A DNA stretch of 62,900 bases, filler included, from Hausera hauseri (Eukaryota): the NCBI GenBank assembly GCA_046269625.1. It is 12 parts of 12 records of this genome, joined end to end, with 100 filler letters (N's around TTAATTAATTAA, not from the genome) between each part and the next. Parts side by side here need not be neighbours in the genome. Positions count along the whole stretch, not along the records: positions 52,807 to 57,329 come from JBJURY010541897.1; 11 more parts are not named here. One strand, 5' to 3'. Each line of letters opens with the position of its first letter. The stretch's first letter is position 1. The notes beneath the pieces were generated by a model, which saw nothing but the letters and a program-made list of their open reading frames with translations, had not been told where the DNA came from and did no database searches. Position numbers and translations under genes: made by a program. Positions 14,162 through 61,944 of this stretch are shown here, piece after piece.

Positions 14162-14275
14162 GGTGCTACTTCTTGNNNNNNNNNNNNNNNNNNNNNNNNN
14201 NNNNNNNNNNNNNNNNNNNTTAATTAATTAANNNNNNNNNNNNNNNNNNNNNNNNNNNNNNNNNNNNNNNNNNNN

Positions 14276-15177: not shown

Positions 15178-15200
15178 TTGTGTGTCTGCCTGTCTGTCTG

Positions 15201-16625: not shown

Positions 16626-16658
16626 GATCTCGATGATGATGATGACGCAGTTTGTTTA

Positions 16659-17655
16659 TTATCGACCTTGACGACGTCGAAAGTTTAGCGTCAAATGTTT
16701 CGTTGACCCGAACAAAAATTTAATGGGTTACCAAAATTTATCAAACATATACTCGGAAATACTGCACAATATTGTGCAACAATGACAAGTATATGGGTCT
16801 TAACATAATAATGCGAACAGTTTCACCTAATGATGCTGATTTGTACGTGTCAGAATCCAATTCGATAAAAGCCAGCAGTTGTTTACATTCTCCACCAACG
16901 AGTACGGTTTCGATTAAGTCCGTTACAATGTTGATTCGGTGAAATGCTTCATAGAGTTTTGGTTGGTATTTGGCAACAATATATCGTCCAACAATGTTTT
17001 GATAGAACTCACGTTGTGAAAAACTCAGATTCCGAGCCAATAATTCATCAAAAGAAAAATATGTAACATTGTCATGGAGTGTAATCGAAATACGACCATC
17101 TGCGTTTATTTCACATGTCTTTACGACTAATACGGCCGATTTCTTGATGTATTCACACAATTCCAGTTCCGTTTCCATTAGTAAATCGTGAGGTATAATA
17201 TAATAGAGGAAGACTGCTTCTGACTTAATCCACTTTACAATAATATCGGATTCCGCATTGGACGAAAGGTCCAATTTTTCACCAATTATAACATGTCAAC
17301 ATAGCCGTAGACGTTTTAAGTGTACATTGACTGATTGAAAACCCCATGCATGAGTATCAGCTATAGATTTAAACTGCATTTCCGTGGGATTTCGATGTAT
17401 TAGTTTCATACAGTAGTTTGAAAAATAAGCATAAACCGAAAAACTTTGGCGCAAATAATTGCGAAGAGCATATCGGTTATTGTGTCGGATTGTCCGCAAA
17501 CGATATGTTGTCATTCTGACGTATTGTCATTGGTGAAAATGTAAACGTGAATTCCGTCAAAGCCACTTGCCAGGCTCCCTGGCCTAAATCGACCGGTTGG
17601 TTCAAGTGCACGGTAAACTGTTTAGCGGTATTGTCGTCATTGTCGTCGTTGTCAT
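16659..17655 (-). pseudogene. Second, divergent penton-like gene
   Basis: C-term INIVTDLIETVLVGG...LLAFI...PIYLSL...LTLNFRR is penton-like; N-terminus lacks the LPSN motif; homologous to 52807-53201. Confidence 0.7.
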
Positions 17656-17700
17656 GTTATGATATTGACCTGTTACTATCAAGTACCAAATAAATGCTCA

Positions 17701-18734
17701 TCACTCAATATGCAATGCAAATGTCCAACTCGATGTAGTGTATCCGTGCCACTTGACGAGATATTGTTTATTCGAACCTTTGCCGCGTGAACGTAGAATT
17801 TCCTGAGTACAATTTATATCGGGTTTCTCGGGTAGTACCTGCAGTTCCTGTTCGTAGAATTTACCGCGTATTTCTTCACCGTTTTCATCCTCTAAAACGT
17901 ACATGACTGGTGTTTGTTTTATGTTGATTGCTGAAATTCGGAAAACCTTATCTCTCCAGTTCTGATTGAAATTCTTAATGAATGGCGTGGTACTCAGCTT
18001 TGAAATACGCACATAATCACCGATTTTATATTTTGGACGATGTTTAATTGCCTGTCGACCTCGTCGGTTGTTTTGATAAAGCCACATGTCGAAATCATCG
18101 ATTACGTCAACAGCTCGTAATCCATTGATACCACGGTTTGTCGAATGATTGTATGCATGAATAATATCCGACAGTACATCTACCCAGCGTTTGTTGCCTT
18201 GTTTCGTAAAGAATTTGTTTAGGTGACCGCGCAATGTTGGATTAAATAGTTCAACGAGTGCAGCCTTGTATTGGGAAAACACCGAGTAGTGGTTTACGCC
18301 GAACCGTTTCTATATCGCCGCAATGCGGGCATTGTAGAATTCCTTACCCAAATCCGTTTGTAAATGCTTCGGTTGTTGTTGTTGTTGTATCAGTGTCTGG
18401 ACAGCGTCGGCAATCTCTTTACCGGATTTAGATTTCACAGCAATTGCGCGTGAAAACGACTAAACACATCAGCACATGTCAGTACGTACCGATACCCATC
18501 ATTGATGCTGGAGTACGGAATCATTTCCATCAAATCCATTTGCCATACATTATTTACACCGCAACACGGTATGCACGAGTTGGAAACCGCTTTTTTTCGG
18601 TTTGTTTAGGCTGTATGAAACTGTTTCCCATGCCAACGTTGAGTCTGTTGCCGAGTCTGTTTGACAGTCTTTGCTAGTTTGTCGACGCCAGTATACCCGA
18701 CGGGATGACTCGAATCGAACCACACATCGCCCAT
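17701..18734 (-). pseudogene. Polinton retroviral-like integrase with C-terminal chromodomain, frameshifted
   Basis: HPVGYTG..KL; LQTDLGKEFYN; KAALVELFNPTL; YNHS; YKIGDYVRISK; GKFYEQELQ; YLVKWHGY. Confidence 0.93.
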
Positions 18735-20987
18735 CGTTGCCGTCGATGGTGTCGGTTTTGCTTGCATTACGGCAGTTAGAACGAAACGTAAATGAAAGAT
18801 TCGGTCAACTGGGACAGAAAGATGAAAACCATGCATCCATATCACAGAATTATCATATACTTACTGTCATTGTTTATACTATGACAATCGGTAGAATTGC
18901 ACCAATGTATCCGCCGTCTTGTTGGTACATAACCTCTCGTTTCAGTCGTTTACTGCGAGCGTTGGCAAGGCCAATGAGTCGTTTTAGGTACTTTAGNNNN
19001 NNNNNNNNNNNNNNNNNNNNNNNNNNNNNNNNNNNNNNNNTTAATTAATTAANNNNNNNNNNNNNNNNNNNNNNNNNNNNNNNNNNNNNNNNNNNNTCTT
19101 TTTAGGCAACGTGAGCGGTTCATCCGATCCAGCCAGTCCAACTGAGAGGACACCACTAAGCTGCACATTGGTTCGTTTTCAATCTGTGTGTGTGCGCGCA
19201 TTTGTGCGCATGTGTTTTAGCGTGAGAAATGCAATGTGTGGCGTGTGCACGTCCTGAAATGCGTGCGTCTCACGGCCAATGCGTGAAACTTGACAGCCCT
19301 GGTAAATATTAAATTATCTGGTGAGGCTAATCTGCTTTTGCTCTCATTAAAGCAAACTTTCTTATTTCATCAGCCATACACCTGTGGAGGAGGCTCTTCA
19401 CGTGCGTCAGCAGCAATTTTGAAGAGGGTCTGACAGCAAAGTGCACAAGAGTCCAACCTGAAGCGCTTTTTTCGTGTTTTTGATACCCAAATCACATTTG
19501 GTGTGAACGCAGAATAATTCCCACTAAACATTGGACGTCGCATGGATGTCCAGATCATGTCTAAATTGAGTCCGTCGGTCGTAGACCAATTCTGCATGTC
19601 TGCATGACGTCCGAACAAGGTCCTATTTCGACGTCAAACTAGGACCTCCCATGCACGTCGTTATGGAGTACAAAGTTTGAACGTCATAAAAGTTTTTTTT
19701 TTGAAGGTCATATAGACATCCATGGGAAGTGCATAGTTAATACTTTATTTATGATTTATTTTTAATTAAAAATATTAAACTATTATTAATTTACTATAAT
19801 ACATTATAATATGTTTATTATTTTTTAATTACCTTTTAATGTTTTCTTTTAATTTTATTTAATTAAATTTATTTAATTAAATTATATTTAAATTTTATAT
19901 TTATATTAATTTATTTAGAAAATATCAAGGTTTACTGAGGATATGAGATTACACAGTCATATTCAGTAGGTGGCAGTACGTGTGAAGTTGTTTGCTTTCT
20001 GTCATTAAAAAGAAAAGAGAAGAAGAATTGTATTAGCCGGCTTTGGAACCTGAGCATTATGATTGGATTGCCCGTTGTAGCACGTGATCTTGCCCAACCA
20101 ATCAACGCTCTCTTACGGCACAGTGCTTATTTTGAAGCCGACTGTTGCTGTTCTTTATTCTTTTCTGAGCGCAACTGGCTGGATTCTCCTTCCAAATTAC
20201 TCATCAGTTGAAGGTAAGTTTTGGTTCTGTTTTGTTAATTTTATGTGTTACATATTTTAACTTTGTTTAAGTTACTAGAACCCGTGTCCTTCTTGGCTTA
20301 TAGTACTTCAGCTAGCTACTGCAGTAGTCGAAAGGCATAAAGTTGAACACTTTGATGAAAAATAAGAGTCTAATCTCGCTAAATTTGCCTTTTTGATATT
20401 CTTTTCTGTATTTCCTTTATGACTTCTGAGACCTACTCCACACAAAACTGTTATCGTCGTGGCTTTGCCTCGTGGTCTCCCAACACGCATGCCATGTGCT
20501 AACCAGGGAACAGAAAGAATTAGGGATGGGTACTGAGCTCGATACTTTAAGTACCGACCGAATTCGGTCGCTGAGAACCAGTTCACGCTTCACGTAACAT
20601 CCATCGGTAACATGTTTCTCTCCCTAAATCCACCATTGCTACCGATTTGGCGTTCTAGTGAGAGATTTTCCATGCTTTTCCTGAATTCTGTATTGCGCAA
20701 GAGCGTAATGACGTCAGCAGCCACTAAGTTCGGTCTTTACTTACCTTTTAAAAGGATCAATGATTAGTTGTAACATTAGACTTTATTTGATAAACAGTTA
20801 TCTGTAAAATACAGACTGTTAAAATACTGTAAGGTGTTTAGTTTTTATAATTTTTAAACTGAAAGTTAAAAACAATTTATTACACGGATGTGGCCAGGGT
20901 TTTATTTTTTATTTTTTGGTTTTTGTTTACCATTACATCTTTATAGTTTTTTTATTGCTGAAATAATAATTACAAAATTTTTTTTAG

Positions 20988-30036: not shown

Positions 30037-31038
30037 NNNNNNNNNNNNNNNNNNNNNNNNNNNNNNNNNNNNNNNNNNNNTTAATTAATTAANNNNNNNN
30101 NNNNNNNNNNNNNNNNNNNNNNNNNNNNNNNNNNNNAGGTTCACCCATCCTGAAATGGGTACCAGGATAAAAACCTGGGAAATAAATGCAGCGAGAAAGG
30201 TGGTGGTGTCCTTACTCACAAAGCCGAAGCCTAGAAAAATGAAGGCACTAGCACTTCATTTCCCTACGGCATTGTTAATGCTACAGGACTAAGTTTTTGT
30301 TTTTACTTTATGCCACACCTTAACGCTCAAAGACATTGAATTTGCCCCCCACCCCACGAGCATAACAGCCAAAGTTCTGAAAACGTGTACTATAAATAGC
30401 CACTCCAAATGACACTGGACAAAGTCCGATATGACCCAGGCTTCGTTAGAGAAATTGCACGGTTATGAACACGAAAAAAGGGATCAGAATTGTTATATTA
30501 AAGAAGAACGGCAGTGTCACGTGAGTAGTGATATACGCGGTTACGACGCGAATTCTGGGGGAGGGAGAAGGGGGAGGTAGGGGAGATATATACCCTGAAG
30601 AAGAAAATACTCCCTCCCCCTTCAAGGGGGAGGACGTTGAGGTAAGGGAGAGATTACTCTTTTGGTCATGTTTTAAGGGGCAGACAACTCTTCCATATTT
30701 GTTTTGGAGGCGCTCTGGACACCGCCTATTTTTTAAGATTAGTTGACTCAGCGTTGTTTTTTTTATGGTATAATTAGGGTGAATACCTGGTCGTTGTTTA
30801 GAGAGTTGAGGCAGCGCCGGCTGGGCCCGCCCGTTTGCCGGATCCTTTGCCCAGTCATCCTCTGGGCGCCGCGTCGGCCACCGGGTCGCTTCCCGGTCCT
30901 CATTCTCTCAGGTGCCAGGTCACTTCCATGGTCATCATCCTCCCGAGCGCCGAGTCACTCGTGACTTGTGTCAGACGACTAATGGGTTTCCCTTTAAATA
31001 TTAGGTGGGAATATTGTGACCTTACAACATTAATGAGA

Positions 31039-31602
31039 ATGGATCCGAGGTGGAAGTGGCAAAACCATTTTCGTGCGCGAGTTTTTTCGCATCTTCCAAT
31101 CATGGTCGTCCCCGTCCCCGAGGAGATTATATGGTGTTACGGTGAGTGGCAAACAATGTACCAAACCATGACGACCGTGCAATTTATCGAAGGGCTTCCA
31201 GACGTGGAATAGTGGCGCGGGGACAAGAGGTGATTGGTGATTATCGATGATCTAATGTCGGAGATGGACGACCAAATAACCAAACTTTCTACAAAGGCGA
31301 GTCACCACCGGAATCTCATCGTCATGTACATTGTCCAAAACCTGTTTTGAAAAAATAAGGAACACCGCACCATAAGCTTAAATTCCCATTACCTCGTCCT
31401 TTTCAAAAACTCCAGGGACGCATCGCAGATTATCATCTTGGGCAAACAGATATACCTGGGTCACGGTTCATATCTGCAAGAAAGTTTTAAGGACGCTCAT
31501 AGTTATTTGTTGCTCGATCTTCGTCAAGAAACACTGGAACACTTGCGATTGTGCAGTTGTATTTTTCCCCATGAGAACTAAGTCGTGTACGTCCCGAAAT
31601 GA
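31039..31602 (+). pseudogene. Polinton A32-like packaging ATPase
   Basis: MDPRWK then residual GSGKT (deletion/frameshift), IIWCYGEWQ, IIDDLM, KASHHRNL, QNLF, RTISLNSHYLVLFKN.RD; several stops. Confidence 0.92.
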
Positions 31603-31891
31603 ACGCTACATTTACCCGACATGGTGAAATGTTGTAAAGGCCGTAATGAAGTCAGCGACCAAGAAGCTCATGCAAGCTCTTTGCGAGTGTTGCTACAACG
31701 TGTTAAAAGGTAACGCTCCGCTCAATCGAGAACAGAAGAGTCGTTTGCGTCGTTACAAAACGGGTCTGTGCGCTCTGACCAAAAAGAAGCTTTCGGTCAA
31801 AAGACGGAAAGAGATTCTCCAACAAGGAGGTTTATTAGGCGCTTTATTGGATCCTATACTGAACGTGCTGAAAGGCGTGTTGGGCGTTTAA
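31599..31891 (+). CDS. Conserved small Polinton protein (LCECxxNxLxG...QxGG motif), 5' part frameshifted
   Basis: ALCECCYNVLKGN.PL...LRRYK...KRRKEILQQGGLLGALL.P; homologous end in C4 (18875-18996, QQDGGYIGAILP). Confidence 0.75.
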
Positions 31892-31893
31892 TT

Positions 31894-32451
31894 ATGGCCA
31901 GGAAAATGATTTTGATGGACCTGCGTTTGTTGGAGACTATGAACCAAAGGCAATACGTTCCGCCCGACGCTGTGAGCGACAATTTTCGAGACTTGGATTA
32001 TGAAATACAACGAATACTGGAAAGGGACGATTTATCACCGCGCGACAAAGCCCGATTGTATCAACAAACATTGCAGTATTATCTGAATAGACTAGAACAA
32101 CCTGACAGAAATCTCTAGGGTTGATTGACATAAAAGAACCGACGCCGCCTCTTCTCCCGACTATCGAGGACATATCGCCGACCGTACTTAAAGACAAAGT
32201 CTCGGATATAATACCGCAAACCCCGTCGACGACGACGACAGACGGCCGTTACCAAAACCCCTCAAGTGTCAGCCCCTCAAGTGTCAACGCCCGGTACCAA
32301 AAGACCTCTATCGCCGATGCTAGTTGCCAAAATTTCGCAAACACCGCCCTCGTCTACTAAAAAGAGATGGAGAATACTCGTGTTTCGTAACCTGAGAAAA
32401 CGCCATAAAGAAACAAACATGCCCGACTGGGAAACATGGCCCGCCGAATGA
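31894..32451 (+). pseudogene. Conserved Polinton protein preceding integrase
   Basis: ARKMILM...LDYEIQRIL...LSPRDKARLYQQTLQYYL, Pro/Thr-rich linker, C-terminal WETW; internal stop and frameshift. Confidence 0.65.
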
Positions 32452-33500
32452 ACGAACTTTTACTTAAGTATTACTTCGACCCGAAGTGAGCGGGTGCATA
32501 CGGAGGGGCAGCCGTCTTACATCACGCTACCAAAATCGAGGCTGAGAAAATTAAGGAATGGTTAAGTCACCAAGATGCTTATATGCTTCATAAACCCGTT
32601 CGTCGCAAATTTAATAGGCGACCCATCGTAACGGGCAGCATCGGTCACCAGTTTCAGGCCAATCTGATAGACATGCACACGTTAATAACATTCAACAACA
32701 GGATGTTGTACCTAGTGACGTGTATAAACGTGTTTAGCAAATATGCTTGGGCAATTCCGATAAAGAAGAAAACCAGCAAGGAGCAAGTGGAGGCTGTTAG
32801 CAAAATTTTTGCAGAACGTAAACCTATGGTGCTACAGACTAACAAAGGCAGCGAGTTTCTCAACAAAACATTCCTCAAGTTTCTCAAAGAACGAGGCGTG
32901 CGCTTCTTCACTACGGAAAATGAAGACGTTGAGGCTGCCACCACGGAGCACTTAAACCAAACTTTAAAAGAAAAAATGTGACAATATTTTACCAAAACAA
33001 ACGGTCTTCATTACGTAGACACGATCGAAGATTTCCTTCTAAATTACAACCTGTCTTATCACAGAAATATTCGCATGGCCCCAGCGCAGGTTAGTATTGA
33101 CAATCAAGAACAAGTGTGGAACAATTTGTATTCATCGCTCGACGCACTCGGCAGAAAAGCATTTATGGAATAGACCACGTCAGAGTCGGACAAATCAGAC
33201 AACATTTTTAGAAAGGCTACACTCCAGCATGGATGGAATAATCGTTTACCGTGTCTAGTATAAACGCGACAATTCCGATAACTTATGTGCTCAAAGACGA
33301 CACCAGCAAGGAACTGCTAGGCTCGTTTCACAAAGAAGAGCTCCAAAAAGGTTGGAGACAAACAAGCTTACAGAATAGAAAGCATTATACGAGAAAGGCA
33401 AACAGCGGGTGGTAAAGAATATTTAGTGAAATGGTTCGATTATAATTCGTCATTCAACAGTTGGATTTCGAGCAAACATATTTCGAGTTATAAAGACTAT
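32448..33500 (+). pseudogene. Polinton integrase with chromodomain
   Basis: YYFDP...GAYGG; LHKPVRRKFNRR; FQANLIDM; INVFSKYAWAIP; LQTNKGSEF; EYLVKWFDYNSSFNSWI. Confidence 0.93.
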
Positions 33501-33501
33501 T

Positions 33502-33759
33502 ATGTCGGAAGAAAAAACCACCGTGGAAACGACAGTTTTTAATGAAGAACCATGAGAGAGATCCGTATCGCTATGGTTTGGTAAGCTGCTTCCTCGAGTC
33601 GAGGTCATCTTCATCTCTCAGATGTTGGTTATATACGTCGTCATTGGCGTGTCGCTGTTCAATCTAACCAGAGGAAGCGGTGACGCACACGAGGGAAAAT
33701 TGTGGATCGTCCTGCTGTCGAGTTGTCTGGGGTACATGTTGCCTAACCCAAAACAATGA
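33502..33759 (+). pseudogene. Small two-TM Polinton protein
   Basis: EVIFISQMLVIYVVIGVSLFNLT...LWIVLLSSCLGYMLPNP; one internal stop; ATGA overlap with the penton. Confidence 0.65.
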
Positions 33760-34519
33760 GTTTTGACGTGATGCTGCCGAGCAACTCCTCCATGAAAACG
33801 CTTCTGGATAACGAAGCCGGCCACTTTTACGTGAAACCGCCGCAAACCATAGACTTAACTACCAATTACAAAGTGGTTTTGGTGGAAATTGAATTCCCGA
33901 GTAGTTATTTTAACATCTTAAAAGACGACGTGTGGATACGTTTCCTTCCACACAAGAACAACATCATGCCGGTGTTTAAAATCATGCTTACCCTGGGTCT
34001 CTATGATACCCACGAGAGTATCTGACGAGTTAAACAGACTTTTCTCGCTACCCGTGAGAGACAAAGATCCGGCGCCATTAAAGATTCATTATCGTAAAGA
34101 CTAGAAAACTATTTTACTCGAACGGCTCGAGTCGTGTGCAGACATCATTATTAGCGAAAAATTGAAAAATATACTCGGACTTTCACAAACCCATATAAGA
34201 CCCGCTTCAACTAGGAAAGGTGCACGAAAATTTGGACACCTATATACGCAATGTGTACGTGTACTGCGATATAGTGGTGGCCAGACGCGTAAGAGATGTT
34301 ATTGTACCTTTGTTACGAACTGTCCCTATTTTGGACACAAAATCGACAGTCGTATTTTGGATTTCTGACAAACCTCACTACTTACCTTTGAATAGGTTTT
34401 CCTTCGATACGGTAGAAATACTTTTAACAGACGAGCAAGGAAACTGTATTTCATTTATGAGCAGCACATCAGTGGTGATATTACATTTTCGACCCAAGAG
34501 ACATTTCGATTTCCAATAA
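33756..34519 (+). pseudogene. Polinton penton, copy 1 (frameshifted)
   Basis: MSFDVMLPSNSS...YKVVLVEIEFP; VYVYCDIV...VPLLRTVP...PHYLPL...VEILLTDEQG...LHFRP. Confidence 0.88.
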
Positions 34520-34548
34520 AAATGGTGAGATGATCAAGTTTATGAACA

Positions 34549-35050
34549 ATGAGTTTCTTCGTCACGCTACCTAGCAACGCCTCACTGAAAACGTTTCCCG
34601 ACAATACCCCAGGTCAGTTTTACATAAAACTGCCACGAACCATAGACCTAAATTCCAATGACGAAGTGGGGTTGGTGGAAATTGAATTTCCAACCAGTTA
34701 TTTCAACGTTCTAGAAAACGAAGTTTCTGGCTTCATTACGAAAGCCCCTTAGATGTAACAAAACGACCCATGCAAATCAAGTTACCTCCGGGGCTGTACA
34801 ATTCACCAGGTGATTTTGTAGACGAATTGAATCGTTTGATCGCCGTAGCAGTGAAGGATGTTGAACCCCCGTCAATTCGAGTCCACTATCACCGAGTCAA
34901 GAAAACTATCCTGTTGGAATGGCACGAGAAGGAGGCTGCAGTTTTTATTAGCGACAAATTAAGAAGCATAGCTGGGTTCAGAACCCAACACATTGCAGAC
35001 TACAAGTGAATCACCACTGAATCTCGACAGGGACATACGAAACGTGTACG
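34549..35050 (+). pseudogene. Polinton penton, copy 2, 3'-partial
   Basis: MSFFVTLPSNAS..FPDNT...LP..IDL...EVGLVEIEFP...LPPGLYNS; close paralog of copy 1. Confidence 0.88.
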
Positions 35051-37232: not shown

Positions 37233-37735
37233 TTATTTGAAGTCGATATCGATCATATCGTTAGTATTCCTACTGGGAGCCGCATGACTAGTGAGCGACG
37301 TTTCGTTATATGCTATTTCTGATTTGTATAATCGGATGTCAACTATGTAGCTATTCGTTAATCCATCAGGCATGTGTACCTTCCTGCTGTGTACCTCAAC
37401 ATATCTCGGCACCTTACTGGGATCAGCAGAATTGATACCGAAGCGTACATCAACAACCACCGAGCCCGGTCGTCGGCCGCTAATGGTCATTGCTACGGGG
37501 TTTTTGCAAACAATTGTGGTGCTCTGTTCCTGATTGGCCATACGACTATTAAGTATATACTGTGAGTACAAGTCCAACAGCCGATCTCTACTGAATGAAA
37601 CGTCGTTTGTCCGTTTAAAGTGCTATAAAAAATTAATGGGAATATGACCACGTAATGGATCATTAAGAAAAACGCTATCCTGAGTCTTGTGTTGTTTTTG
37701 TTGACTCTCCATGGTTGTTGTTGGATCATCGGTAA
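37233..37735 (-). pseudogene. Unknown protein ORF-X (homolog at about 39640-39965)
   Basis: QKQH...SVFL..PL.GHIP..F...FSR.RLL.LYS...LNSR..NQEQS.TI.CKNPV.M.IS shared between C8 and C9. Confidence 0.6.
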
Positions 37736-37739
37736 TATG

Positions 37740-39112
37740 TTGAAACACAGGTGCGCGATCAGGACACAGAACAGATTCAAAGTCGGCATATACAACAAAA
37801 GGAGGACTTGTGGATTTTGTCCAATCCTTAAATTTACAAAACTTATTTTGGGGCATTTTATACAAAGTCATGCATTTAGAGTTAGACATACACATTGGCA
37901 AATGCTTAGCGTAAGCAGTGTCAAGCCTAAAGCCGTGTAAACATTTTTCACACCAATGCTTACATTGAATACGGATAGTCTTACTATCCATATTCAATAG
38001 TCGATTAAGATTGGGAACAGCAACATAATGAAACTTATCATCATTTTCCAACATCAACAAGTTCACTACAGAACCATTCGTATTTTTGCTTTAATGCAAA
38101 ATATCAACGAATGGATTTTTTAATATATCGTCATCGAAGTCAACGTCATCCTCCTCGTGAAACAAAAAGACGTTTATTGACAACTGCGGATTTTGCCTTT
38201 CAAATTTACCTACGTTACAGATTTTCATAGGCTTATCATGAAAAGAATATTTTAGTTTACCTAAGTAAGGAGTTTAATTGCTAATTCTATATTTATGACT
38301 CTTTTCAAAGATAGAATACTTGGTCACAGCCAGAATCGAGTACAAGAAACACAAATTGTCCTCATTCTGTATATTAACAACGGCAGTTGCATTTCGTAAA
38401 GCTCCAGGTGTTGGCAGATATGATCATTCGGACAAATAAGGTAGTGGGCTTGTTTTCACAATATGAAAGCAGTACTTTAAAATCTTAACTATCTTCCACC
38501 CACTACCCATTTCAGCAAAATTCTCAATTTGTTCTCTTAAACTATCAGCTACATATTGGGAATAAAATTTCTTATAAGGCACGGCTCGATGAGAAATATA
38601 AACTTCCTTAAAGTTACCTTCAGCATTAGAAAAAAGAATTTCCAGACCGTACTGAGTCTTACAAGATGAAAAGCGAGAAGCATATAATTCTAAAATATTC
38701 AAAATTTCTTCAGGTGGTCGAGTAGAAATGAGTTGGTCGGGCGCCACACCAAACAAAGATTAATATAAATATTGTCTATAACAGATTGTACATCGAGTCT
38801 TATTTTTTGAACAGGCGCTTTAATTACAGAATGTTTATCAAGTTTTTGTTTCTTATTTGCAATATCATATGGATTGTTTTGCATTTTCCGTTTAACTGGT
38901 TGCCGTTGATCATTGGTGGAAGTTGTTGGAATATTTTTGCCACTAACAAATTGTTTAGCCATATTAATCATTTCTCTATATTGTTTGAGTAATGCTTTTT
39001 TGAGTTTGGTGAACATAGTTAGGTGATGTCCATGGCGATTTCGAAATTCAGGAAAATTTTGTCCTAATAATATTTCACATGAGAGACAAATGAATAACGG
39101 TTGTCTCCTCAC
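37740..39112 (-). pseudogene. Protein-primed PolB N-terminal region (Polinton-type), truncated at Exo I
   Basis: GSGW; AVVNIQNEDNLCFLYSILA; KFERQNPQLSINVF; NLL...HYVAVPNLNRLL; C2H2-like CEKCL..F...H...C; PFVVYADFES. Confidence 0.85.
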
Positions 39113-52706: not shown

Positions 52707-52806
52707 NNNNNNNNNNNNNNNNNNNNNNNNNNNNNNNNNNNNNNNNNNNNTTAATTAATTAANNNNNNNNNNNNNNNNNNNNNNNNNNNNNNNNNNNNNN
52801 NNNNNN

Positions 52807-53201
52807 AAGACTGATTCTGACTTAGTCCACTTTACTATAATATCGGATTCCGCATTGGATGAAAGGTCCAATTTTTCACCAATGATAACATGTCCACCTA
52901 GCTGTAGACGTTTTAATTGTACAATGATTGATTGAAAATTCCATGCCTGAGCATCAGCTATAGAATTAAACTGCATTTTTATGGGATTTCGATGCATTAG
53001 TTTCATATGGTAGTTTGAAAAATAAGCATAAACCAAGAAATGTTTTCGCGAATAATTGCGAAGAATATATCGGTTATTGTGTCGGATTGTCCGCAAACGA
53101 CTTGAAATTTCGTCAAAGCCGGTTTCCAGGCTCCCTGGCGTAAATCGACCGGTTGGTCCAACTGCATGGTAAACTGTTATCGGTATTGTTGCTGTTGTCA
53201 T
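52807..53201 (-). CDS. Divergent penton-like gene, N-terminal part (ortholog of 16659-17655)
   Basis: RLRTIRHNNRY.LRNY...LDLSSNAESDIIVKW shared with C4. Confidence 0.7.
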
Positions 53202-53243
53202 GTTCAGATAATTTGTTACTATCAAGTACCAAATAAATGCTCA

Positions 53244-54274
53244 TCACTCAATCTGCGAGACAAATATCCAACTTGGTGGAATGTATCCGTGTCACTTGAC
53301 GAGATATTGTTTATTCGAACCTTTACCACGTGAACGTAGAATTTCCTGAACACGATATACATCATGTTTCTCGGGCAGTACCTGCAGTTCCTGTTCGTAG
53401 AATTTACCGCGTATTTCCTTACCGTTTTCATCTTTTAAAACGTACATGACAGGTGTTTGTTTTGTGTTGATTGCCGAAATGCGGTAAACCTTGTCGCACC
53501 AGTTCTGATTGAAAGTCTTAATGAATGGCGTCGTACTTATTTTCGACATACGTATGTAAGCACCGATTTTATATTTTGGGCGTTTAATTACCTGTCGTTG
53601 TGTTCGGTTTTATAAAGCCACATGTCTAAATCATCGATTACGCCAACAGGCTGTAATCCATTGATGCCACGATGTATCGAATAATTGTATGCATGAATAA
53701 TATCCGGCTGTACATCTACCCAGCGTTTGTTGCCTTGCTTCGTAAAGAATTTATTTAGGCGACCGCGCAATGTTCGATTAAATCGTTCAAAGAGTGCAGC
53801 CTTATATTGGGAAAACACCGAGTAATGGTTTATACCAAACCGTTCCAAGACCGATGCAACGTAGGCGTTGTAGAATTTCTTATCCAAATCCGTTTGTAAA
53901 TGCTTCGGTTGTTGTTGTTGTTGTATCAGTGTTTGAACAGCGTCGGCAATCTCTTTACCGGATTTAGATTTCACAGTAACTGCACGTGCAAAACTACTAA
54001 ACACATCAATATATGTCAGCACGTACCGATACCCATCGTTGATGCTGGCGTACGGAATCATTTTTATCATATCCATTGGCTATACGTTATTTACACCGGC
54101 AGCACGGTATGCACGAGTTAAAAACCGCATTCTTATCGGTTTGTTTAGGTTGTATGCTAACTGTTTTCCAAGCTAACGTTGGGCCTGTTTCCGAGTCTGT
54201 CTGACAGTCTTTGCCAGTTTGTCGACGCCAGTATACCTGATGGGATGACGCGGATCGAACCACACATCGCCCAT
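53244..54274 (-). pseudogene. Polinton integrase with chromodomain, frameshifted
   Basis: YRYVLTYIDVFS, LQTDLDKKFYN, KAALFERFNRTL, GKFYEQELQ, QYLVK. Confidence 0.93.
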
Positions 54275-54560
54275 CGTTGTCGGCGATGGTGTCGGTTTTT
54301 CTTTCATTACAATAATTTGAACGAAACATAAATGAAAGATTCGGTAAACTGGGACAAAATGATGAAAAATATGCACCGCTTTCCACTATCCACAACGATA
54401 TTGTATAAAATTTCCATAAAATCGTCTACTACAAATTGCGGGAATGATCGCAGCATGTTTCATTTATGTCTCGTACGTGCCTTGAGCAAAACAATAAAGT
54501 ACGGCTGACTACGTTTGAATCGCATTTTTTCACGTATTGATATTGATGAGACGTAGTTGT

Positions 54561-54755
54561 TTATAAGCGTTTCCACTGTGACGGTAATGTGCGTCTAGTT
54601 GCTGCTGCTGCTACTGTTGTTCGAAGCACAGAATTGATGAATCGTTTGACTGTAGCGGTTCGTTTTGATACACGTTTCTTGCCACCGGACACCCGCTTGG
54701 TAGGTTTACGTTTAACAATTGTTCTTGGGAAATTCTTCATTTTTATCATAATCAT
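54561..54755 (-). CDS. Small Lys/Arg-rich Polinton protein
   Basis: Basic 64-aa ORF ending SQWKRL, with ATGA overlap on the ATPase stop. Confidence 0.5.
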   Translation of the reverse strand: MIMIKMKNFPRTIVKRKPTKRVSGGKKRVSKRTATVKRFINSVLRTTVAAAATRRTLPSQWKRL

Positions 54756-55407
54756 GTCGTCAATTTTTGAATTTGTGTATAGACATATACACTTTTCTGA
54801 TTGAAAATGTCTGTTCGTACACGAATGTCATCGAAACACTGTTGCGTAAAGTCAGTGAACAAGTATCCATGTGGCTCGGTCGTAGCATCATGATATGCAT
54901 CTATGAAGTAGTCTGGGTTGTGACGAAATGCTTGTCGTGCAACATAATCAATGATAGTCTGATCACGGGGATTTTTGAACAACACCAAATAGTGCACGTT
55001 TAGATTTATTGTTCTATGCTATCTGCCCTCATGGAACATGTTTTGCGTAATGAAAATAACCGTCACACGACGGTGAAGTGCAATCTTTATGAAGAGGTTG
55101 TTGAAGTCCGATTGTTTTGTTGCCTCTCGAAATAAATCGTCGATGATAATAATGTCACCGATGCGTAATCTCTATGACTAGTTCTCATCAAACCCATCAA
55201 TTACCGTTATCGATTTCAGTTTACAAAATTCCCGTTGTGTCAAACCGGGCTCACCATCATCACCAACATCCTGATGCAAGTATATATGATTTCACCGCGG
55301 TGAATGGAACATGTCACGGTAGTTCTGCAATAGTTTACACACAAAGTGTGTTTTACCACTTCCCCTGGGCCTAAAATCTGGAAAATTGCATCATTCTGCA
55401 GCTTCAT
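54752..55407 (-). pseudogene. Polinton A32-like packaging ATPase
   Basis: ILGP-(frameshift)-GSGKTHFV, IIIIDDLF, HRRVTVIFITQNMF, RTINLNVHYLVLFKNPRD, PHGYLFTDFTQ, RTDIF. Confidence 0.92.
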
Positions 55408-55472
55408 CTAAATAGTAATAAGAATAATACAACCTTTCCTCACATGATTTGTTTATAATCGTGTTACACGAA

Positions 55473-55480
55473 TATAAATA
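55473..55480 (+). promoter_or_regulatory. TATA box upstream of the TBP-like gene
   Basis: TATAAATA ends 27 nt before ATG 55507, within the 100-bp divergent gap between ATPase and TBP-like gene; the gap is AT-rich, so chance is possible. Confidence 0.4.
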
Positions 55481-55506
55481 GCTATAGTATAAACACTTTT
55501 TCCATA

Positions 55507-56070
55507 ATGTTAACTAATTTCAACTATCGCGGACATGTTACCGAGTGTGACATTAACACACAACCTTTTATTCAATGTAAGCCGAGGCAGTATGTCCTCA
55601 AGTGTCCACTGGATTTTACGTGCATTATACTTCAATCGGGAAAGTGTCGTATTATGTGTTGTCGCAAACCAATCACATCTGACAGTAACAGTAAACTACT
55701 ACCATTCGGAATTGTCATGGACAAAATCCAATCAATAACGGTAACGACTCAGTTAGACTACCAAACAATCAATCTGTACAAGGTAGCAATGGCCACGGAA
55801 AGTACGTATGAACCCGAACTGTTTCCTGCACTGAGACTTACATCGTTTCGCCCACTTTGTGTCAACGTGTTTAGCAGTAGAAAAATTGTTGTACTCGGTA
55901 TTCGTACAGTGGACTATGAACCGATTATTAATCAAATTAAAAACCACATAGATGTTTTAGTGAATCAAAATAATGTATATTACACAAACTATAAATACCA
56001 TTCCCATGCTCATTCAGACATTACTACCATGAAAGACGATGATAAAACGATTCTACTTAATGACGCTTAG
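55507..56070 (+). CDS. TATA-box-binding-protein-like protein (two-repeat core only, divergent)
   Basis: Repeat 1 TCIILQSGKCRIM; repeat 2 KIQSITVT...INLYKVA...YEPELFPAL...VNVFSSRKIVVLG matches TBP signatures (YEPELFPGL, IFxSGKxVxxG); intronless. Confidence 0.85.
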   Translation: MLTNFNYRGHVTECDINTQPFIQCKPRQYVLKCPLDFTCIILQSGKCRIMCCRKPITSDSNSKLLPFGIVMDKIQSITVTTQLDYQTINLYKVAMATESTYEPELFPALRLTSFRPLCVNVFSSRKIVVLGIRTVDYEPIINQIKNHIDVLVNQNNVYYTNYKYHSHAHSDITTMKDDDKTILLNDA

Positions 56071-56829
56071 GCGAATGATGAAAGTTCAGATTGGTCGTGG
56101 TTGTTTGCCTACAAAAAGCACAATTCTAATGTTAATTTTCTGGAAACCAAAACAGAACCTGTCCAACAATTATAAAAACCGTGTGATAATTCTAATGGCG
56201 ATTGTCTGCATGGCGATTATGATGTCGATTGTCTTGAAATGAAAAAGGAACTTGCTCAGAAATCAGCAGCAGCAAAATCGACGTTAAAAAGGCAAAATGC
56301 AATGATTAAAATACGTAAACGGAAATCAAAACCGTAGTGCCAAACACAGACATTTTTACCGAAACGAATTTTTCGCAAGCATAAAATGAATTTTCTGTAA
56401 ACGCCCGTACTGATTTCATTGAATGATCCCGTGTCGCTATGCGCAGCCAAGTACAGTTATCGTGTAAAACGGCTTTTGGGTGAAAATTTTGATAACATTT
56501 CTTATGATCACATCAATTAAACATGGATTTAAAGTTGAAAGAAAGGACCGTGCAACAGCAATTTTTCGTTTTACCGGCTCAAAAAACGAAATTTTTTATT
56601 TTATCGGTCACGAAATATCTAGTGTACCCGATGATGATGGTTCAAAGTGTTGACTGAATATTGAATTGCAAGAATACAAGGAAAAAGCCGGTATCAAAAG
56701 CCCGATTTGGCGTGTAGCTGACGCACATTTTAATTATCAATAAATTTTGTTGTTTTGTTCTTTCATTAACCCAATTAACGAGTACAAATATACGTGTATT
56801 TTTAAAATTAGGCATAAAAGTAATTATAA

Positions 56830-57280
56830 TAAATGATGTAAAAATTATCTTAACAGACGAAAATACCTTTGTACTGAGACGTGTTATAGCAAACAGTGCA
56901 GGCTACGATGTTTTCAAATAACAATACGACAATTTCAGACAGCACAATCAAATGCATAACGACTGGGATTCGATTGGTGATTCAACCCAGTTACTACGGT
57001 CAACTTTTATCGAAAAGCGGACTGGCAAAGCTCGGACAGACGGTTGTTGGCGGCGGTGTCATTGATTCAGACTTTCGTGGTGAAATTAAGGTGTTGCTGA
57101 AAAACCAATTCGGGGAACCGTATGCTTTTTTGAAAAGCAGTGCAATCGCATAAATCGTTTTTCTTCGATGTGAAGAGACGGAATTCAGTGTAATGTCTCC
57201 GGACCGATGGGGATTGTTTTGTGTCAATGAAGCAAAGAATTTGGCTTTGGTGATATGGACAAAACCACTTATGTTTAATG
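56830..57280 (+). pseudogene. Trimeric dUTPase, disrupted
   Basis: Motifs SAGYD, KSG, GVIDSDFRGE, IA(Q to stop) and a GFG remnant; frameshifts. Confidence 0.9.
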
Positions 57281-57475
57281 ATTGTGATAATAATAATAAT
57301 AGTTAGTTGTTTTGCTTGTGTTATAAACCNNNNNNNNNNNNNNNNNNNNNNNNNNNNNNNNNNNNNNNNNNNNTTAATTAATTAANNNNNNNNNNNNNNN
57401 NNNNNNNNNNNNNNNNNNNNNNNNNNNNNAAAATCTGGATTTAGAAGTAAACTAGTATCGCTTGTTAGTAGAATA

Positions 57476-57692: not shown

Positions 57693-60600
57693 TTATTTTT
57701 TCATAAATTTCATCTGTTTCACGTATTCCCAAACGACAATGGCACCAGTCACGTGAACATTCAACGAGCGTATTTGACCCAATTGTGGAATTTCAACACA
57801 CCGATCAATGATCGAAATTATGTTAACCGGAATACCTTCTTTCTCATTTCTACAATATCGTAATTGAGTCAGCGAAAGAAACGAAAAGCAGACCCCAAAA
57901 TTAAAACCGTTTTTGGAGTGAATACCATCGCTTGCAACGGAACACTGTGAGCAGTTTGTTCAACTCCGACAATTTCGAATCCCTGTTGCTTCTTCAAAAA
58001 AATGAAATCAATTAATGATCTCAACGGCACTTCGGTGATATTAATCCATTTATCGGCTGTGACAGCGAGCTGTTTGAAGCTGTTGTCATTGACGACAGCC
58101 ATATTATTGACGACAAATTCTCCGATGCCAAAAATTTCACTTGTTCTTGCCAAACCCCCAAGATTCGTCGTTTTATCCAATAAGGAGCAGATCAAAACTA
58201 GATCAGTTGATGGAGTTGAGAGACCAAACATTTCTTGGAGCTCGTCTTCATCCGGTCGTGATACAATCCACGGTTGTATTTTCTTTTGATAATCCATTCC
58301 ATTATTGTTTTCCAACTGATCATCAATCACCGATGATTCCACTTTAATACGCCACGACGATCCGTGACAATAGTCGACCCAACCAGCCCGGAAATTGTAA
58401 AATTGAAAGCAATAATCATCAGGACAGTCACCAACAATTATAAATTGATCGATGGATATCAGTTCCTCTTCAACAAGCCCGAACAAACGAGGCAGAATAT
58501 CAAACATAGTCTCAAGACAAATATCCTGTACCGGGTTGAAAAATCCCCACCAGAAATTCTCCGTCAAATTGCTGACGTTTTTGAACGTCGAACTGCGACT
58601 GAGAAATGTCCGGTAGTTTGCGATAATGTTCGACAGGGATTCGTTGGATTTCGACAAGGATTTTGCAACTTGACAAACGAGCGCCATCGCGTGCAGGCGA
58701 ATGTTGAAATTTTGTGCGGAACCCAATGGCAGAACAGTGCACACCAATTTTTCAACGTCAACTGCATCCGTTAGTTCAATCAAATGTTTGAAAATGTTTA
58801 TCAGAGAACAAACATTCGCCGGTTTTTTGTCGGATGAATTTGCCAGAAGTGAAAAGAGCTGTTGTTGAAGAGGCAAACTGTTACGCATCAGAATGATTAA
58901 TGTCCACTCGGCCATGTGTCGGATGGAACTGAGAGTTTCATTTTGAATACAGGCAATCATCCAGCGCACAACCGATGTTTCTACTTGTGCCGATACGGAA
59001 CCAATTGTATTATTGATACAGATAAACAGGATTGAAAACAAACGATGGCGCAATCGATGGGTTTGGTTGTTAATGTAGTTTTTATAGCAGCCTCGATTGG
59101 CTTCTACAATTGACTTGTCTATTTCGTGCAGCCGATGAATAACTGCCTCAATGAAGCACGTCGTTATCATATTATTGTTGCGCAGACACAAGATAAGAAT
59201 ACCGGAAATTCGACTGTTACTTTCATTAATCCGATTTATCCCTTTACAATCCCATCGATCACCGTACCGATGACAAAAATACTTATCGATAATATTGTCG
59301 TATTTGGAATTCCGTCGATGAAACGGACCGAACAATGCCAATTTACACGTCACATCCAAACAGAACCGTTCCAAATCACCGCTACACTTATTACCATTGA
59401 TATTTTTCACGAATTCGTGCATTTTCTGACCGAACAAATTAACGACACGAACTTTCTTTTCACCCAATTCAAATATCGCATCGACAACGGCACTCAGACG
59501 AATCCAACAGAATCGGCCGTTCGTCGAATTGACGAAATCCACAAACGGAAACAGCACAGTCGACAGAAAGATTCGATAGATTTCCCAAAACCGATGAGCA
59601 TTGGCCAGTTCGTCGTTGATTTTCATCCATGAAAATTCGACGAATCGACCGAATTTCTCAATGAAATCGAAGTCGGTCGTTGGCAGTTTGCTGATCAAAC
59701 ATTGAGCAAATTTCAACACGGAAATAACGGAAAATACTGTCGTACTGATGTCCAACAAATCACTGCAAAAATCCAACAGATCCATTTTGCTTATGCTCAA
59801 CGGTTTGTCGTCCGATAATTGTCGAATGAGTCGAGACAAACAGCGCAATTTCTGGTATCCCAATGACGTGATGTTCGTCAGTTTACCAATTTCCAATAAA
59901 TGATCCCGATCGGTGTTGGGTAATATGTGTTGAAACTGTGGGTTTGGGAGAAACGACCCTGCAATGACTAACACCGCATCGTCAACGGACCGGCGACAAA
60001 TCGTACTGACTTCATCGGGAAATTGTTTCGTAAAGAATTTCAACAAATTCAAATAGTCCAATTGCGTCTGGGAATTGGCAACAGTGTCGAAATGGTAAAT
60101 TCTGTTCAAGAGAAAGGTCACAATGTCCGGCAGAACATTTCTAATTGTCGAACTAACGATGGACTGTTTGTTCGCGTGTTGCCGACAATGCGTCAATTCC
60201 GTGAAACACAATTGGACATTTTTCAGAAACAATACGATCTTCTGAGATTCGTCAACCAGTGAACTGTCATCCGTTCGAAATTCTTTGGAAATGTTCGTCA
60301 GAAAAAGCGCGAACGACTCGTCATCGGTATGCAAATTCATCAGAGAAAATAACAAAGAAACGGTAAATAAATTCATATTGGAATTCCGAATAATTCCTTT
60401 GAATATTTCAATTGGTGAACCGGTGGCGAACTTCGTCGTAAACAAATCCAACAAAACATTATCCGAAAAAATCACTTTGTTATTATCGAGTAAATAATTC
60501 ATACTAATCAAATAATCGGAAATCAACGACAAGTCTACATCGTGATTGTTCAGGAATCCAATCAACAGAAACGACGTGACACAACAACGATATTTCACGT

Positions 60601-61944
60601 CCAACGTTTCCAAATTCCGTCGACAGAGCGTTGCGAGTTTCGACAGAACGTTCAGCGAGAATCTCGCGCTGACTAAATGGATCTTGGAAAAAGCCTCGGT
60701 GAAAAATAAGAGTGCCTGAGAATTCCAGGAAATCGCAGAGATCGTATTGAAAAATCCATAGAGATCGGTTTCATAGTTCGATGACGAGAAAAATCGAGCG
60801 AACAAATCGTCGAGAAACCGAACAAGAGATTCATTGGCAAAAAATCCGTTGATCGGTGTGATGGATTCGTGAGAAAAGTAGAAAACGGAATCGTTGAGAA
60901 ATTTGGAGAAGAAGTCCGTTAAGAGATTCTTGTATGAGTTCGATTGTAACGTAATTGGTAACTGAAGAAATTGCTGAAATCCCCATTTCAAAACCACCGT
61001 ATTGTCATGCATCAGCGCTTTTTTAATGATAATAATCGGCCACTGGATTGGAAGATTTCCAAACGAGTAGTTGCCTTTCAGACGGTCAAATTTGGATAAA
61101 ACTGGTAGAATAACGTGCGTTTGTTTCTCTTCTAATGACTGAATTAAATCCAAAATATCCGTGATATCATTTTCAGACAAAGACAATTGGATGATTTCGT
61201 TTGAAGCCACCTCAAGACGTTGGTCTCCATTTAACTTACACGTATGAAGAAATCTGTTCAACCAATATATAGCGCGTTTTCGATTCATGGACACCGATAC
61301 TATAGGATTGTTCATTATTCCTATCCAAAGGTCGCTAGACAGAAGTGCAGCCCGATCAATGACAGCATTAATGGAAGCGGCTGATAACAGAAGAATAAAA
61401 TACTCATAACAGTTGAGACTATTTAATTTTTCAACGTAATCTGTATTGCGTCAATATCACTAAGTCATTTTGTGTAATTTTTCTCATTGATTGAATAAGA
61501 AACAGTAAACATTTTTCTTTAACCGCTATATTATCTGCTGATCCACATATTTCCCCTAAAAGATGACGATCAGTCATATTTTCCAGCAAATCGGGATAAT
61601 TGATCGAAATAAACACTAGAACATCCTATACTTAAACTTCCTGATTCACTAACAATCAACACTAGTTTCTGAGTAATGTCTTTTCACTTGATGGTATGAT
61701 TACTATATTGATTTATTAAAAATCTAATAAAAATATGAGTAAATAAATTACACTCCATATTCAATAAAATATGGCACAATTCTGATGCAACATCGGGAGG
61801 AATAGATTCAAAGTCCTTTAAATTTATCTCATTGAAATTCTTTTCTGAATATTTAAAAACTTTGTCAAATATCATCTCATTCCTGTATTTACTGTCTGTT
61901 TCTTTAATACAAGAGGCATATAACAATAATTCTAAATTATCCAT
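57693..61944 (-). CDS. TARBP1: TARBP1/Trm3 tRNA (Gm18) 2'-O-methyltransferase; 5' structure unresolved
   Basis: Long helical N-terminus, DYQKKI, SpoU domain [20 protein letters not shown]...GVEQT...ILG|NEKEGIP...[15 protein letters not shown]...WEY after a 44-nt GT-AG intron (57850-57893). Upstream pieces 61316-61944 lie in different frames. Confidence 0.93.

Follow-up and report, generated by a model that had tools for sequence, protein, structure and literature searches.

TBP-fold proteins that act at viral late promoters have been described in herpesviruses, in which KSHV ORF24, EBV BcRF1 and HCMV UL87 are TBP mimics at TATT late promoters (PMC12529657). TBPs are also mentioned in mirusvirus-like elements (PMC10675990). 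For Polinton-type elements, a link with TBP was made by Starrett et al. (2021, PMC8502044), whose paper and preprint, in the passages on this link, give no function and no promoter box; the text of their Supplementary Fig. S2, which holds the animal adintovirus maps, carries no TBP label. That link was the only one met in our literature searches, which found no paper describing a TBP family in animal Polintons, with most subscription journals, Repbase and GenBank annotations lying outside the search, and no paper on the timing of Polinton virion-gene expression. To our knowledge, Polintons have no RNA polymerase of their own. Here we describe a Polinton family that encodes a ~150-aa TBP-fold protein (mini-TBP), which probably acts as its own late-gene initiation factor, and of which a decaying copy lies in DNA of Hausera hauseri.

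Overall organization of the contig

The window, that is, the whole stretch of 62,900 nucleotides analysed (filler included), consists of short contigs in series with N/TTAATTAATTAA spacers between them. The contig at 52807-57329 is an internal fragment of a multi-copy Polinton/Maverick of the adintovirus type. It is bounded by spacers and shows no termini; the termini, terminal inverted repeats and target-site duplication lie outside the view of this 4.5-kb contig. In run X1, 37,878 contigs lie over it, most of them with 90-99% identity, and together they cover all 30 bins; the run depths are not taken as copy numbers. The features are as follows.

52807..57329, no strand: whole contig, Polinton/Maverick internal fragment (spacers; repeat coverage)
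52807..53240, minus: probable start of a cluster c6 gene, which in relatives comes after the integrase; a weak match (tblastn E 0.039 over 44 aa; gene order of relatives)
53247..54316, minus: rve integrase, broken (Pfam rve E 4.1e-9; 50-57% identity to L045)
54330..54525, minus: small basic protein (cluster c3), broken by 1 stop (tblastn E 7e-14)
54559..54565, minus: TATAAAC box, predicted late promoter, ~40 nt before the c3 ATG (family enrichment 10/15)
54752..55407, minus: A32-type packaging ATPase, broken (62% identity to L012)
55451..55457, minus: TATAAAC box, predicted late promoter, 50 nt before the ATPase ATG (21/23 relatives, 32-53 nt before the ATG)
55473..55480, plus: TATAAATA canonical TATA box, predicted early host-read promoter, 34 nt before the TBP-like ATG (30/57 relatives vs. 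10.6 in shuffles)
55488..55494, plus: second TATAAAC, 19 nt before the TBP-like ATG, not conserved (2/57 relatives, chance 1.4)
55507..56070, plus: mini-TBP ORF (P0001), open but degenerate, core ~55507-55955, remainder read-through (Pfam, fold, tree, alignment)
55990..56340, plus: TATAAATA and putative remnant of a small acidic/basic ORF, ATG 56029 (position and composition)
56368..56728, plus: T7 gp2.5/Enc34-type single-stranded-DNA-binding protein (SSB) remnant (cluster c2), broken (tblastn E 1e-8)
56820..57280, plus: dUTPase remnant, broken (Pfam E 1.9e-12 on 56908-57150)

Two Polinton hallmarks, the rve integrase and the A32/FtsK packaging ATPase, are both present and both broken. The integrase carries 3 stops and 1 frameshift, and the ATPase 4 in-frame stops and 1 frameshift near Walker A; another member of the ATPase cluster (L031) matches Pfam Pox_A32 with an E of 4.8e-6. 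PolB and the protease were confirmed by Pfam in TBP-bearing relatives, and here they and the capsid proteins lie beyond the contig. The small basic protein of cluster c3 is presumably a pX-like core protein. On the other strand, the small acidic/basic ORF remnant found no support in alignments, and the dUTPase that had been reported further on proved to be a remnant with a stop and a frameshift; the repeat family of the contig covers 56820..57280 as well. An intact relative of the c2 protein (L003) has a predicted fold (pLDDT 91.9) that resembles the Enc34 SSB (Z 8.4, rmsd 2.8, 103 residues aligned) and T7 gp2.5 (Z 8.0).

Predicted structure of mini-TBP

The intronless 187-codon ORF of the initial annotation was confirmed at 55507-56070 (+). 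The profile search and structure prediction that had been proposed for it both point to the TBP family: the ORF matches Pfam TBP with an E of 2.5e-8, and 35 of 36 PDB sequence matches at E<=1 are TBP or TBP fusions. Structural comparison of the AF2 model (pLDDT 88.5) with human TBP gave a Z of 12.5 and an rmsd of 3.2 over 149 residues, and the top non-TBP chain reached a Z of 6.2. The ORF is thus predicted to have the TBP saddle fold (PF00352). Its final ~35 codons cross the second TATAAATA (55990) and enter the remnant of the next gene as read-through; the aligned relatives (n=75) have 144-165 aa.

The ORF had been credited with both TBP repeats. The model and the alignment retain the beta-sheets of both. 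Missing from the first repeat are helix H1, almost the whole of H2 and the stirrup Phe; this repeat is aligned with less certainty than the second. A single 4-residue helix is left there in the model, and the two-helix repeat of canonical TBP was not found. Across the family, the first-repeat helices are shortened in some lineages and lost in that of the window.

Comparison of 48 family rows with 30 cellular rows showed that F99 is deleted in 47/48, whereas F116, E188, F190 and F207 are retained in 48/48 and E186 in 45/48. The family keeps three of the four intercalating phenylalanines and the window copy two. The acidic C-terminal stirrup, which contacts TFIIB in canonical TBP, is kept, with E186 and E188 both present in the window copy, and the same contact is predicted for mini-TBP. 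The DNA face is altered: V71, V122, T124, N159, V161, I194, V203 and L205 are replaced by mostly invariant new residues, including V122->R, T124->M and L205->N in 48/48 rows. The changes at two conserved glycines that had raised the suspicion of decay are real in the family alignment. The window protein is also the most degenerate of 76 members and its neighbours are broken, so the suspicion is well founded: this copy of the Polinton, including its mini-TBP gene, is probably decaying and inactive.

Family, phylogeny and genomic context

Homologs of mini-TBP numbered 144 at E<=0.001 among 157 candidates. Removal of three full-length TBPs outside the family (L078-L080) from 80 loci left 77 family loci, 35 of which carry Polinton genes (ATPase, integrase, PolB, protease or putative capsid, the last being cluster c10, so labelled from size and gene order). 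One of the 35 (L070) is doubtful, its 'ATPase' having a branch of 4.85. Among relative loci of at least 4 kb the share is 19/21, in agreement with the Polinton neighbours expected for other copies. The careful tree (45 rows, no mixture model) placed the 23 family rows in one clade with support 100/100, and the quick tree (87 rows) grouped 49 family rows with an SH-aLRT of 98. The sampled viral-contig TBPs (n=4) fall outside the family clade, apart from one row on a long branch, which joins the clade in the quick tree alone. Scans of the viral contigs with alignments of TBP, the ATPase and the putative capsid gave no matches.

A grouping with host TBP, one of the outcomes named beforehand as speaking against a Polinton gene, was rejected: the p-AU for the window protein with six animal-type TBPs is 1.4e-58, five of these rows being named by source and P0392 assumed, in a tree whose rows include no TLF/TRF2. 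The window protein is 73-76% identical to family members vs. ~20% to cellular TBP. These results identify the window gene as a TBP-like gene borne by a Polinton and distinct from host TBP. The proposed dN/dS check gave a median of 0.19 over 69 non-independent pairs of relatives, the window copy not among them, and this codon measure indicates that the family is under purifying selection. Of the integrase pairs, none came through the filters of this check.

The TBP and ATPase genes are divergent with 99 bp between their ATGs (55507 (+) and 55407 (-)), as first described. No Polinton terminus lies in the gap, which is bridged in the same way by a contig from a second organism. The head-to-head layout of the initial annotation has not been conserved, and neither it nor the TATAAATA box is a key feature. 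Among 26 relative loci, the TBP gene is upstream on the same strand in 22, divergent in 2, downstream on the same strand in 1 and doubtful in 1 (L070). The 49 + 77 proteins scanned with Pfam, taken from 710 ORFs, include no TFIIB-like neighbour; a partner of this kind may lie among the others.

Two kinds of upstream sequence

The initial annotation had noted TATAAATA in the gap. It is there, but it faces the TBP gene, and the ATPase has TATAAAC on the minus strand instead. A single TATAAATA in so AT-rich a gap is unremarkable, and its weight comes from the family. The TBP gene of the window also has a TATAAAC of its own, 19 nt upstream.

Upstream regions were compared across relatives with start codons chosen by heuristic; those lacking a Met or 70 nt were dropped along with duplicates, which kept 57/77 for TBP, 23/26 for the ATPase and 17/18 for control ATPases. 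The TBP gene is preceded by TATA in 30/57 and by a TCAnT initiator in 37/57, and 14 of 26 spacings are 28-31 nt. [TCG]ATAAAC precedes the ATPase in 21/23 relatives (shuffle mean 1.1, max 4; reverse strand 0), and is found before PLA2 (7/8), c4 (10/13), c3 (10/15), the putative capsid (6/9) and c6 (8/14), vs. 2/57 before the TBP gene and 0/8 before c8. The box is scarce before the protease (1/6), c18 (1/6) and the zinc-finger gene (1/8); it precedes the integrase in 4/14 and also the presumed early SSB in 3/11. Its distance is ~32-53 nt before the ATPase, c3, PLA2, the putative capsid and others, with a sharp lower limit of 32 nt from box to start for the ATPase, PLA2, c4, c6 and the putative capsid. 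Some c3 copies of the box lie merely 7-12 nt from the ATG, too near for TATA geometry. There are thus two kinds of upstream sequence, TATA with TCAnT before the TBP gene and YATAAAC before virion-type genes. YATAAAC is so close to TATA that host TBP could read it.

Control loci were obtained via integrase, L082 capsid and PolB queries, and the genome contigs yielded one locus, L085. Among Polintons with no TBP match (19 loci, on partial control contigs), YATAAAC precedes 0/17 ATPases, and insect-type elements have canonical TATAAATA/TATAAAAG there. On the ATPase tree, the difference between elements with and without TBP comes down to one change. A Fisher test on the co-occurrence of box and TBP gene was set aside because there is only this one lineage contrast.

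Alternative explanations

The box differs from canonical TATA by one base, and YATAAAC might be read by host TBP or another element factor, with mini-TBP in another role, for example binding to termini or origins in replication beside the SSB. The SSB and TBP genes are frequent neighbours (23/77 loci), single-stranded DNA is bound by a divergent Giardia TBP (PMC12209930), and the box and the TBP gene co-occur in a single contrast of lineages. However, mini-TBP retains the TFIIB-contact glutamates, the 32-nt minimum is sharp before five kinds of gene, and the insect-type elements have a canonical box in place of YATAAAC, so that we regard this explanation as unlikely. A decoy for host TFIIB or TATA boxes that dampens or redirects host transcription would also agree with the retained TFIIB stirrup and the loss of one Phe and of the helices in the first repeat. 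A decoy is improbable: it leaves the element-specific box before virion genes unexplained, the invariant new residues sit on the DNA face, and the surfaces generally assigned to TFIID entry are gone. The box itself could be a poly(A) signal, as TATAAA and CATAAA each differ from AATAAA by one base and the genes are mostly in tandem. However, A is avoided at its first position (2/71 instances), and before c3 and the putative capsid the box often lies inside the preceding reading frame. The window ATPase offers one clean case, in which the box at 55451..55457 (-) cannot be a poly(A) signal because no same-strand gene lies upstream; such a signal is a very unlikely explanation of the box.

Two further explanations concern the window gene. 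Its core is open among neighbours with 13 lesions in ~705 codons (the chance of 150 open codons is ~0.06), as would be expected if the host had kept it as a working gene. Against this, its 5 departures at columns conserved at 85% or more exceed those of each of the 75 others, its private substitutions number 24 vs. 8 and 7 for the two nearest relatives, its tail is read-through, and it is one among very many copies; retention by the host is therefore highly improbable. A host TBP/TLF paralogue or retrocopy lying beside a Polinton by chance is favoured only by the composition of the trees, which hold no TLF/TRF2 sequences. The window protein nests among Polinton-linked proteins, its identity to them far exceeds that to cellular TBP, and its relatives share the Polinton context. 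This candidate is largely refuted for the window copy by tree, identity and context, and we give it hardly any weight.

A putative early-to-late switch

The preferred explanation is an element-encoded late-gene factor. Host TBP and Pol II would first transcribe the early block, here TBP, SSB and dUTPase on the plus strand. Mini-TBP would then bind YATAAAC through its rebuilt polar DNA face, the rebuilt half being the one expected to read the 3' end of the box, the part in which YATAAAC and TATAWAW differ. The intact acidic C-terminal stirrup would recruit host TFIIB, and hence Pol II, to the virion-gene block (minus strand here). The idea that the protein switches on late genes thus fits the late-gene-specific box, as a prediction. 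The first-repeat helices of TBP are the docking sites of TAF1, TFIIA, Brf1 and Mot1. Without them, mini-TBP would stay out of TFIID and TFIIIB and away from Mot1/BTAF1. The alternative role first suggested, redirecting host TFIID, is unlikely because the window subfamily lacks these helices. Whether one ~150-aa TBP-type factor drives a minimal two-step transcription cascade in a large branch of animal Polintons, with YATAAAC specificity, TFIIB/Pol II recruitment and no cell-regulatory surfaces, seems to us evenly poised.

With a named factor and a 7-bp target, virion-gene timing in Polintons becomes testable by ordinary binding and reporter assays. A natural ~150-aa TBP without first-repeat helices would show what a minimal TBP needs and how its specificity shifts. 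The mechanism, if true, would be further evidence for a regulated viral cycle in Polintons. The gene also marks one Polinton branch, and can mislead annotation as a host TBP paralogue.

Comparison with known systems

The contig shares the rve integrase and A32/FtsK ATPase, and its relatives pPolB, adenain and PLA2, with the Polintons/Mavericks/adintoviruses of Starrett et al. (2021, PMC8502044). Mini-TBP has in common with cellular and archaeal TBP (PF00352) the two-half beta-sheet saddle, the YEPELFP stirrup with E186/E188, and the F116, F190, F207 and N69 positions. It differs in its ~150-aa length, the deletion of F99 and the replaced DNA-face residues. Viral proteins with a TBP fold also occur in nucleocytoviruses and mirusviruses; BFVD gave 21 matches at E<=0.001, and those with a name belong to giant viruses. 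These viruses mostly encode their own RNA polymerase.

Herpesvirus TBP mimics likewise combine a TBP-fold protein with a polar DNA face, a variant TATA box, late genes and no RNA polymerase of their own (PMC12529657), and ORF24 has polar residues at V122, T124 and L205 too (Table 1 therein). By analogy, the Polinton system likely works like the late TBP mimics of beta/gamma-herpesviruses. However, ORF24 is a protein of 752 aa with domains for Pol II binding and for further DNA binding, and acts in a six-protein complex, whereas mini-TBP is a bare domain. ORF24 keeps all four Phe and is described without the TFIIB glutamates (PMC12529657); mini-TBP keeps these glutamates. Mini-TBP is thus an analogue and not a member of the herpesvirus TBP mimics, the homology seen being confined to the fold. 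If the proposed role is true, it would be the smallest TBP-type initiation factor and would have converged, as a single protein, on the part that a six-protein late complex plays in herpesviruses.

A TBP-like gene in a Polinton fragment

The ORF at 55507-56070 on the + strand (mini-TBP) matches the Pfam TBP family (E 2.5e-8), and its 36 PDB sequence matches include 35 TBPs. The model of the window protein built with 75 relatives (pLDDT 88.5) superimposes on human TBP with a Z score of 12.5 (rmsd 3.2, 149 residues aligned), compared with 6.2 for the best non-TBP chain. The TBP-like gene noted in the initial annotation is thus real. Every neighbour on the fragment is broken:

Minus strand: packaging ATPase, broken
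Minus strand: small basic protein c3, broken
Minus strand: rve integrase, broken
+ strand, 3' of TBP: SSB remnant, broken
+ strand, 3' of TBP: dUTPase remnant, broken

The SSB was identified through an intact relative, whose model (pLDDT 91.9) gave Z scores of 8.4 to Enc34 SSB and 8.0 to T7 gp2.5, close to the method's caution line of 8.

The contig spans 4,523 bp (52807-57329) and is covered over its whole length by contigs from four public runs. The 37,878 matching records of run X1 (4,301 at ≥99% identity, 10,806 at 95-99%, 16,507 at 90-95% and 6,264 below 90%) show a divergent multi-copy family, the dUTPase end included. One contig of run X2 bridges the ATPase/TBP junction (55370-55648), indicating that the junction is also present in copies of another organism.

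Family, selection and gene order

The protein search returned 144 homologs out of 157 candidates, and the metagenome scan yielded 80 TBP loci, 77 of which belong to the mini-TBP family. A Polinton core gene is present in 35 of the 77; the loci lacking one are mostly short. Among family loci of at least 4 kb, 19 of 21 carry a core gene and the other two carry shared accessory genes, so the Polinton neighbourhood proposed initially recurs across copies. The family is monophyletic (100/100 in the 45-row tree; SH-aLRT 98 in the 87-row tree). A topology that places the window protein with six animal-type TBPs was rejected (p-AU 1.4e-58, in a tree without TRF2/TLF rows), in agreement with the earlier non-host reading. 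Pairwise dN/dS has a median of 0.19 among relatives (69 overlapping pairs), indicating purifying selection, and is 0.09 for the ATPase (8 pairs). Gene order is variable. Where an ATPase was called (26 loci), TBP lies upstream of it on the same strand in 22 and is divergent in two; the head-to-head layout is not conserved.

A 176-aa full two-repeat TBP (P0229) adjoins the family in the 45-row tree, its exact position being weakly supported. A second, PLA2-bearing lineage (L058-L063, L066, L069, L072, L085) retains shortened first-repeat helices in a protein of about 160-170 aa; its TBP is an intermediate from the full TBP to the mini form. The Polinton contig L085 (JAZKHM010000092.1), with ATAAAC upstream of ATPase, c3 and integrase, is assigned to a Bacteroidota MAG, probably through binning contamination. 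Cargo near TBP-bearing elements includes a dual-specificity phosphatase, a ubiquitin-conjugating enzyme, RING fingers, LRR and KilA-N (L006:3975-4316, L034:225-722, L045:1665-2168, L058:13315-13914, L024:1897-3327, L060:8-1216). No TFIIB-like protein turned up among those neighbours, a subset, that were scanned with Pfam.

Two promoter classes

Within 70 nt upstream of predicted starts, the YATAAAC box, scored as [TCG]ATAAAC, precedes the ATPase in 21 of 23 cases (shuffle mean 1.1, maximum 4; reverse strand 0), starting 32-53 nt from the ATG. It is also found upstream of PLA2 (7/8), c4 (10/13), c3 (10/15), the putative capsid (6/9) and c6 (8/14). It is less frequent before the integrase (4/14), SSB (cluster c2, 3/11), protease (1/6), c18 (1/6) and a zinc-finger gene (1/8), and absent from these 70-nt regions of PolB (0/3) and c8 (0/8). 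The names pX-like (c3), MAEL-like (c4) and capsid (c10) are provisional, suggested by motif, size and order. Several loci of the PLA2-bearing lineage have an additional YATAAAC 7-12 nt upstream of the c3 ATG.

TBP genes form the other class: the box precedes 2 of 57, whereas canonical TATA precedes 30 (shuffle 10.6) and TCAnT, which we take to be a host-type initiator, 37 (shuffle 16.5), with a TATA-TCAnT spacing of 28-31 nt in 14 of 26. In partial contigs of 19 Polinton loci without a TBP match, YATAAAC precedes the ATPase in 0 of 17, and the insect-type elements among TBP-less loci have canonical TATA there. The ATPase tree shows a single change between TBP-bearing and TBP-less elements, so this comparison counts as one contrast.

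In the window, YATAAAC lies 50 nt upstream of the ATPase and ~40 nt upstream of c3. The former cannot serve as a poly(A) signal of an upstream gene, since ATPase and TBP are transcribed in opposite directions from the gap between them. Unlike its relatives, the window copy has TATAAAC 19 nt upstream of the TBP ATG.

Protein anatomy and proposed mechanism

Residues were counted in 48 family rows and numbered by the yeast TBP scheme, anchored on P0381, whose spacing agrees with the Table 1 residues of PMC12529657. E188, F190, F207 and F116 are retained in all rows, and E186 and N69 in 45 each; F99 is deleted in 47. All rows carry V122R, T124M, L205N and S or T at N159 and V161; I194 is mostly R. 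In the window's subfamily, the first repeat lacks helix H1 and most of H2, in both model and alignment. The convex side of this repeat is the docking site of TFIIA, TAF1, Brf1 and Mot1. PMC12529657 ascribes to P191 a preference for T at position 1 of TATA; hence the second repeat reads the 5' end, and the 3' end would fall to the first repeat, the rebuilt one.

We consider it fairly likely that mini-TBP directs host TFIIB/Pol II to the YATAAAC promoters of the virion block. The early block (TBP, SSB, dUTPase) would be transcribed by the host from ordinary TATA promoters; mini-TBP would then bind YATAAAC and bring TFIIB/Pol II to the virion block, beyond TFIID control. Of this scheme, the fold, the family, its selection and the two promoter classes are established, and the steps of DNA binding, recruitment and timing are inferred.

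State of the window copy

The window copy deviates at five family columns that are at least 85% conserved, more than any other of the 76 members. Both Gly positions reported as changed in the initial annotation are among the five, as is a Phe position belonging to the three that the family retains. Its private substitutions number 24, whereas the two nearest relatives have 8 and 7. At 187 aa it exceeds the 144-165 aa of its aligned relatives, and its tail runs through a second TATAAATA and past the point where the following remnant begins. With its broken neighbours, these features bear out the suspected decay, and the copy is probably a dead fragment. Domestication by the host would fit a core that stays open while the neighbours carry 13 lesions over about 705 codons (chance of about 0.06); set against the deviant columns and overlong tail, it is very improbable.

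Other elements in the window

14276-18996, - strand: second Polinton fragment (c3, integrase with chromodomain, c6, c18, putative capsid)
30137-35050, + strand: different, decayed Polinton (ATPase, c3, integrase, c6)
37626-38759, - strand: broken Polinton PolB fragment, 34-45% identity to L003/L034
41505-43584 and 62553-62900, both - strand: LTR-retrotransposon RT, RNase H and integrase pieces
57869-61315, - strand: 1148-aa intronless ORF, C-terminal SpoU methylase domain (E 1.8e-9), presumably resembling Trm3/TARBP1

The fragment at 14276-18996, possibly of the same family as the contig with mini-TBP, has TATAAAC at 18878 and at 15237; the latter lies within the c18 end, 60 nt upstream of the ATG of the putative capsid. 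The Polinton at 30137-35050 shows no TBP match and no YATAAAC before its ATPase, c3 or integrase regions. The window joins 12 unrelated short contigs (4-7 kb each) through 11 spacers (4469-4568 through 57330-57429; 44 N, TTAATTAATTAA, 44 N), so gene order across spacers carries no meaning. The ORFs at 52755-53201 and 14224-15177 extend into a spacer.

Comparison with known systems

PMC12529657 describes TBP mimics that herpesviruses use on TATT promoters, and mini-TBP likely works in a similar way. However, ORF24 is a protein of 752 aa with four Phe and without the TFIIB glutamates, which rules out mini-TBP as a member of that group. In the available part of Starrett et al. 2021 (PMC8502044; preprint 10.1101/697771), a TBP label for MELD viruses appears uncommented in a non-animal section. 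A literature search of limited reach brought up no account of either the family or the box from animal Polintons. A viral TBP-like late factor is a kind already known; the novelty of mini-TBP lies at the level of the family.
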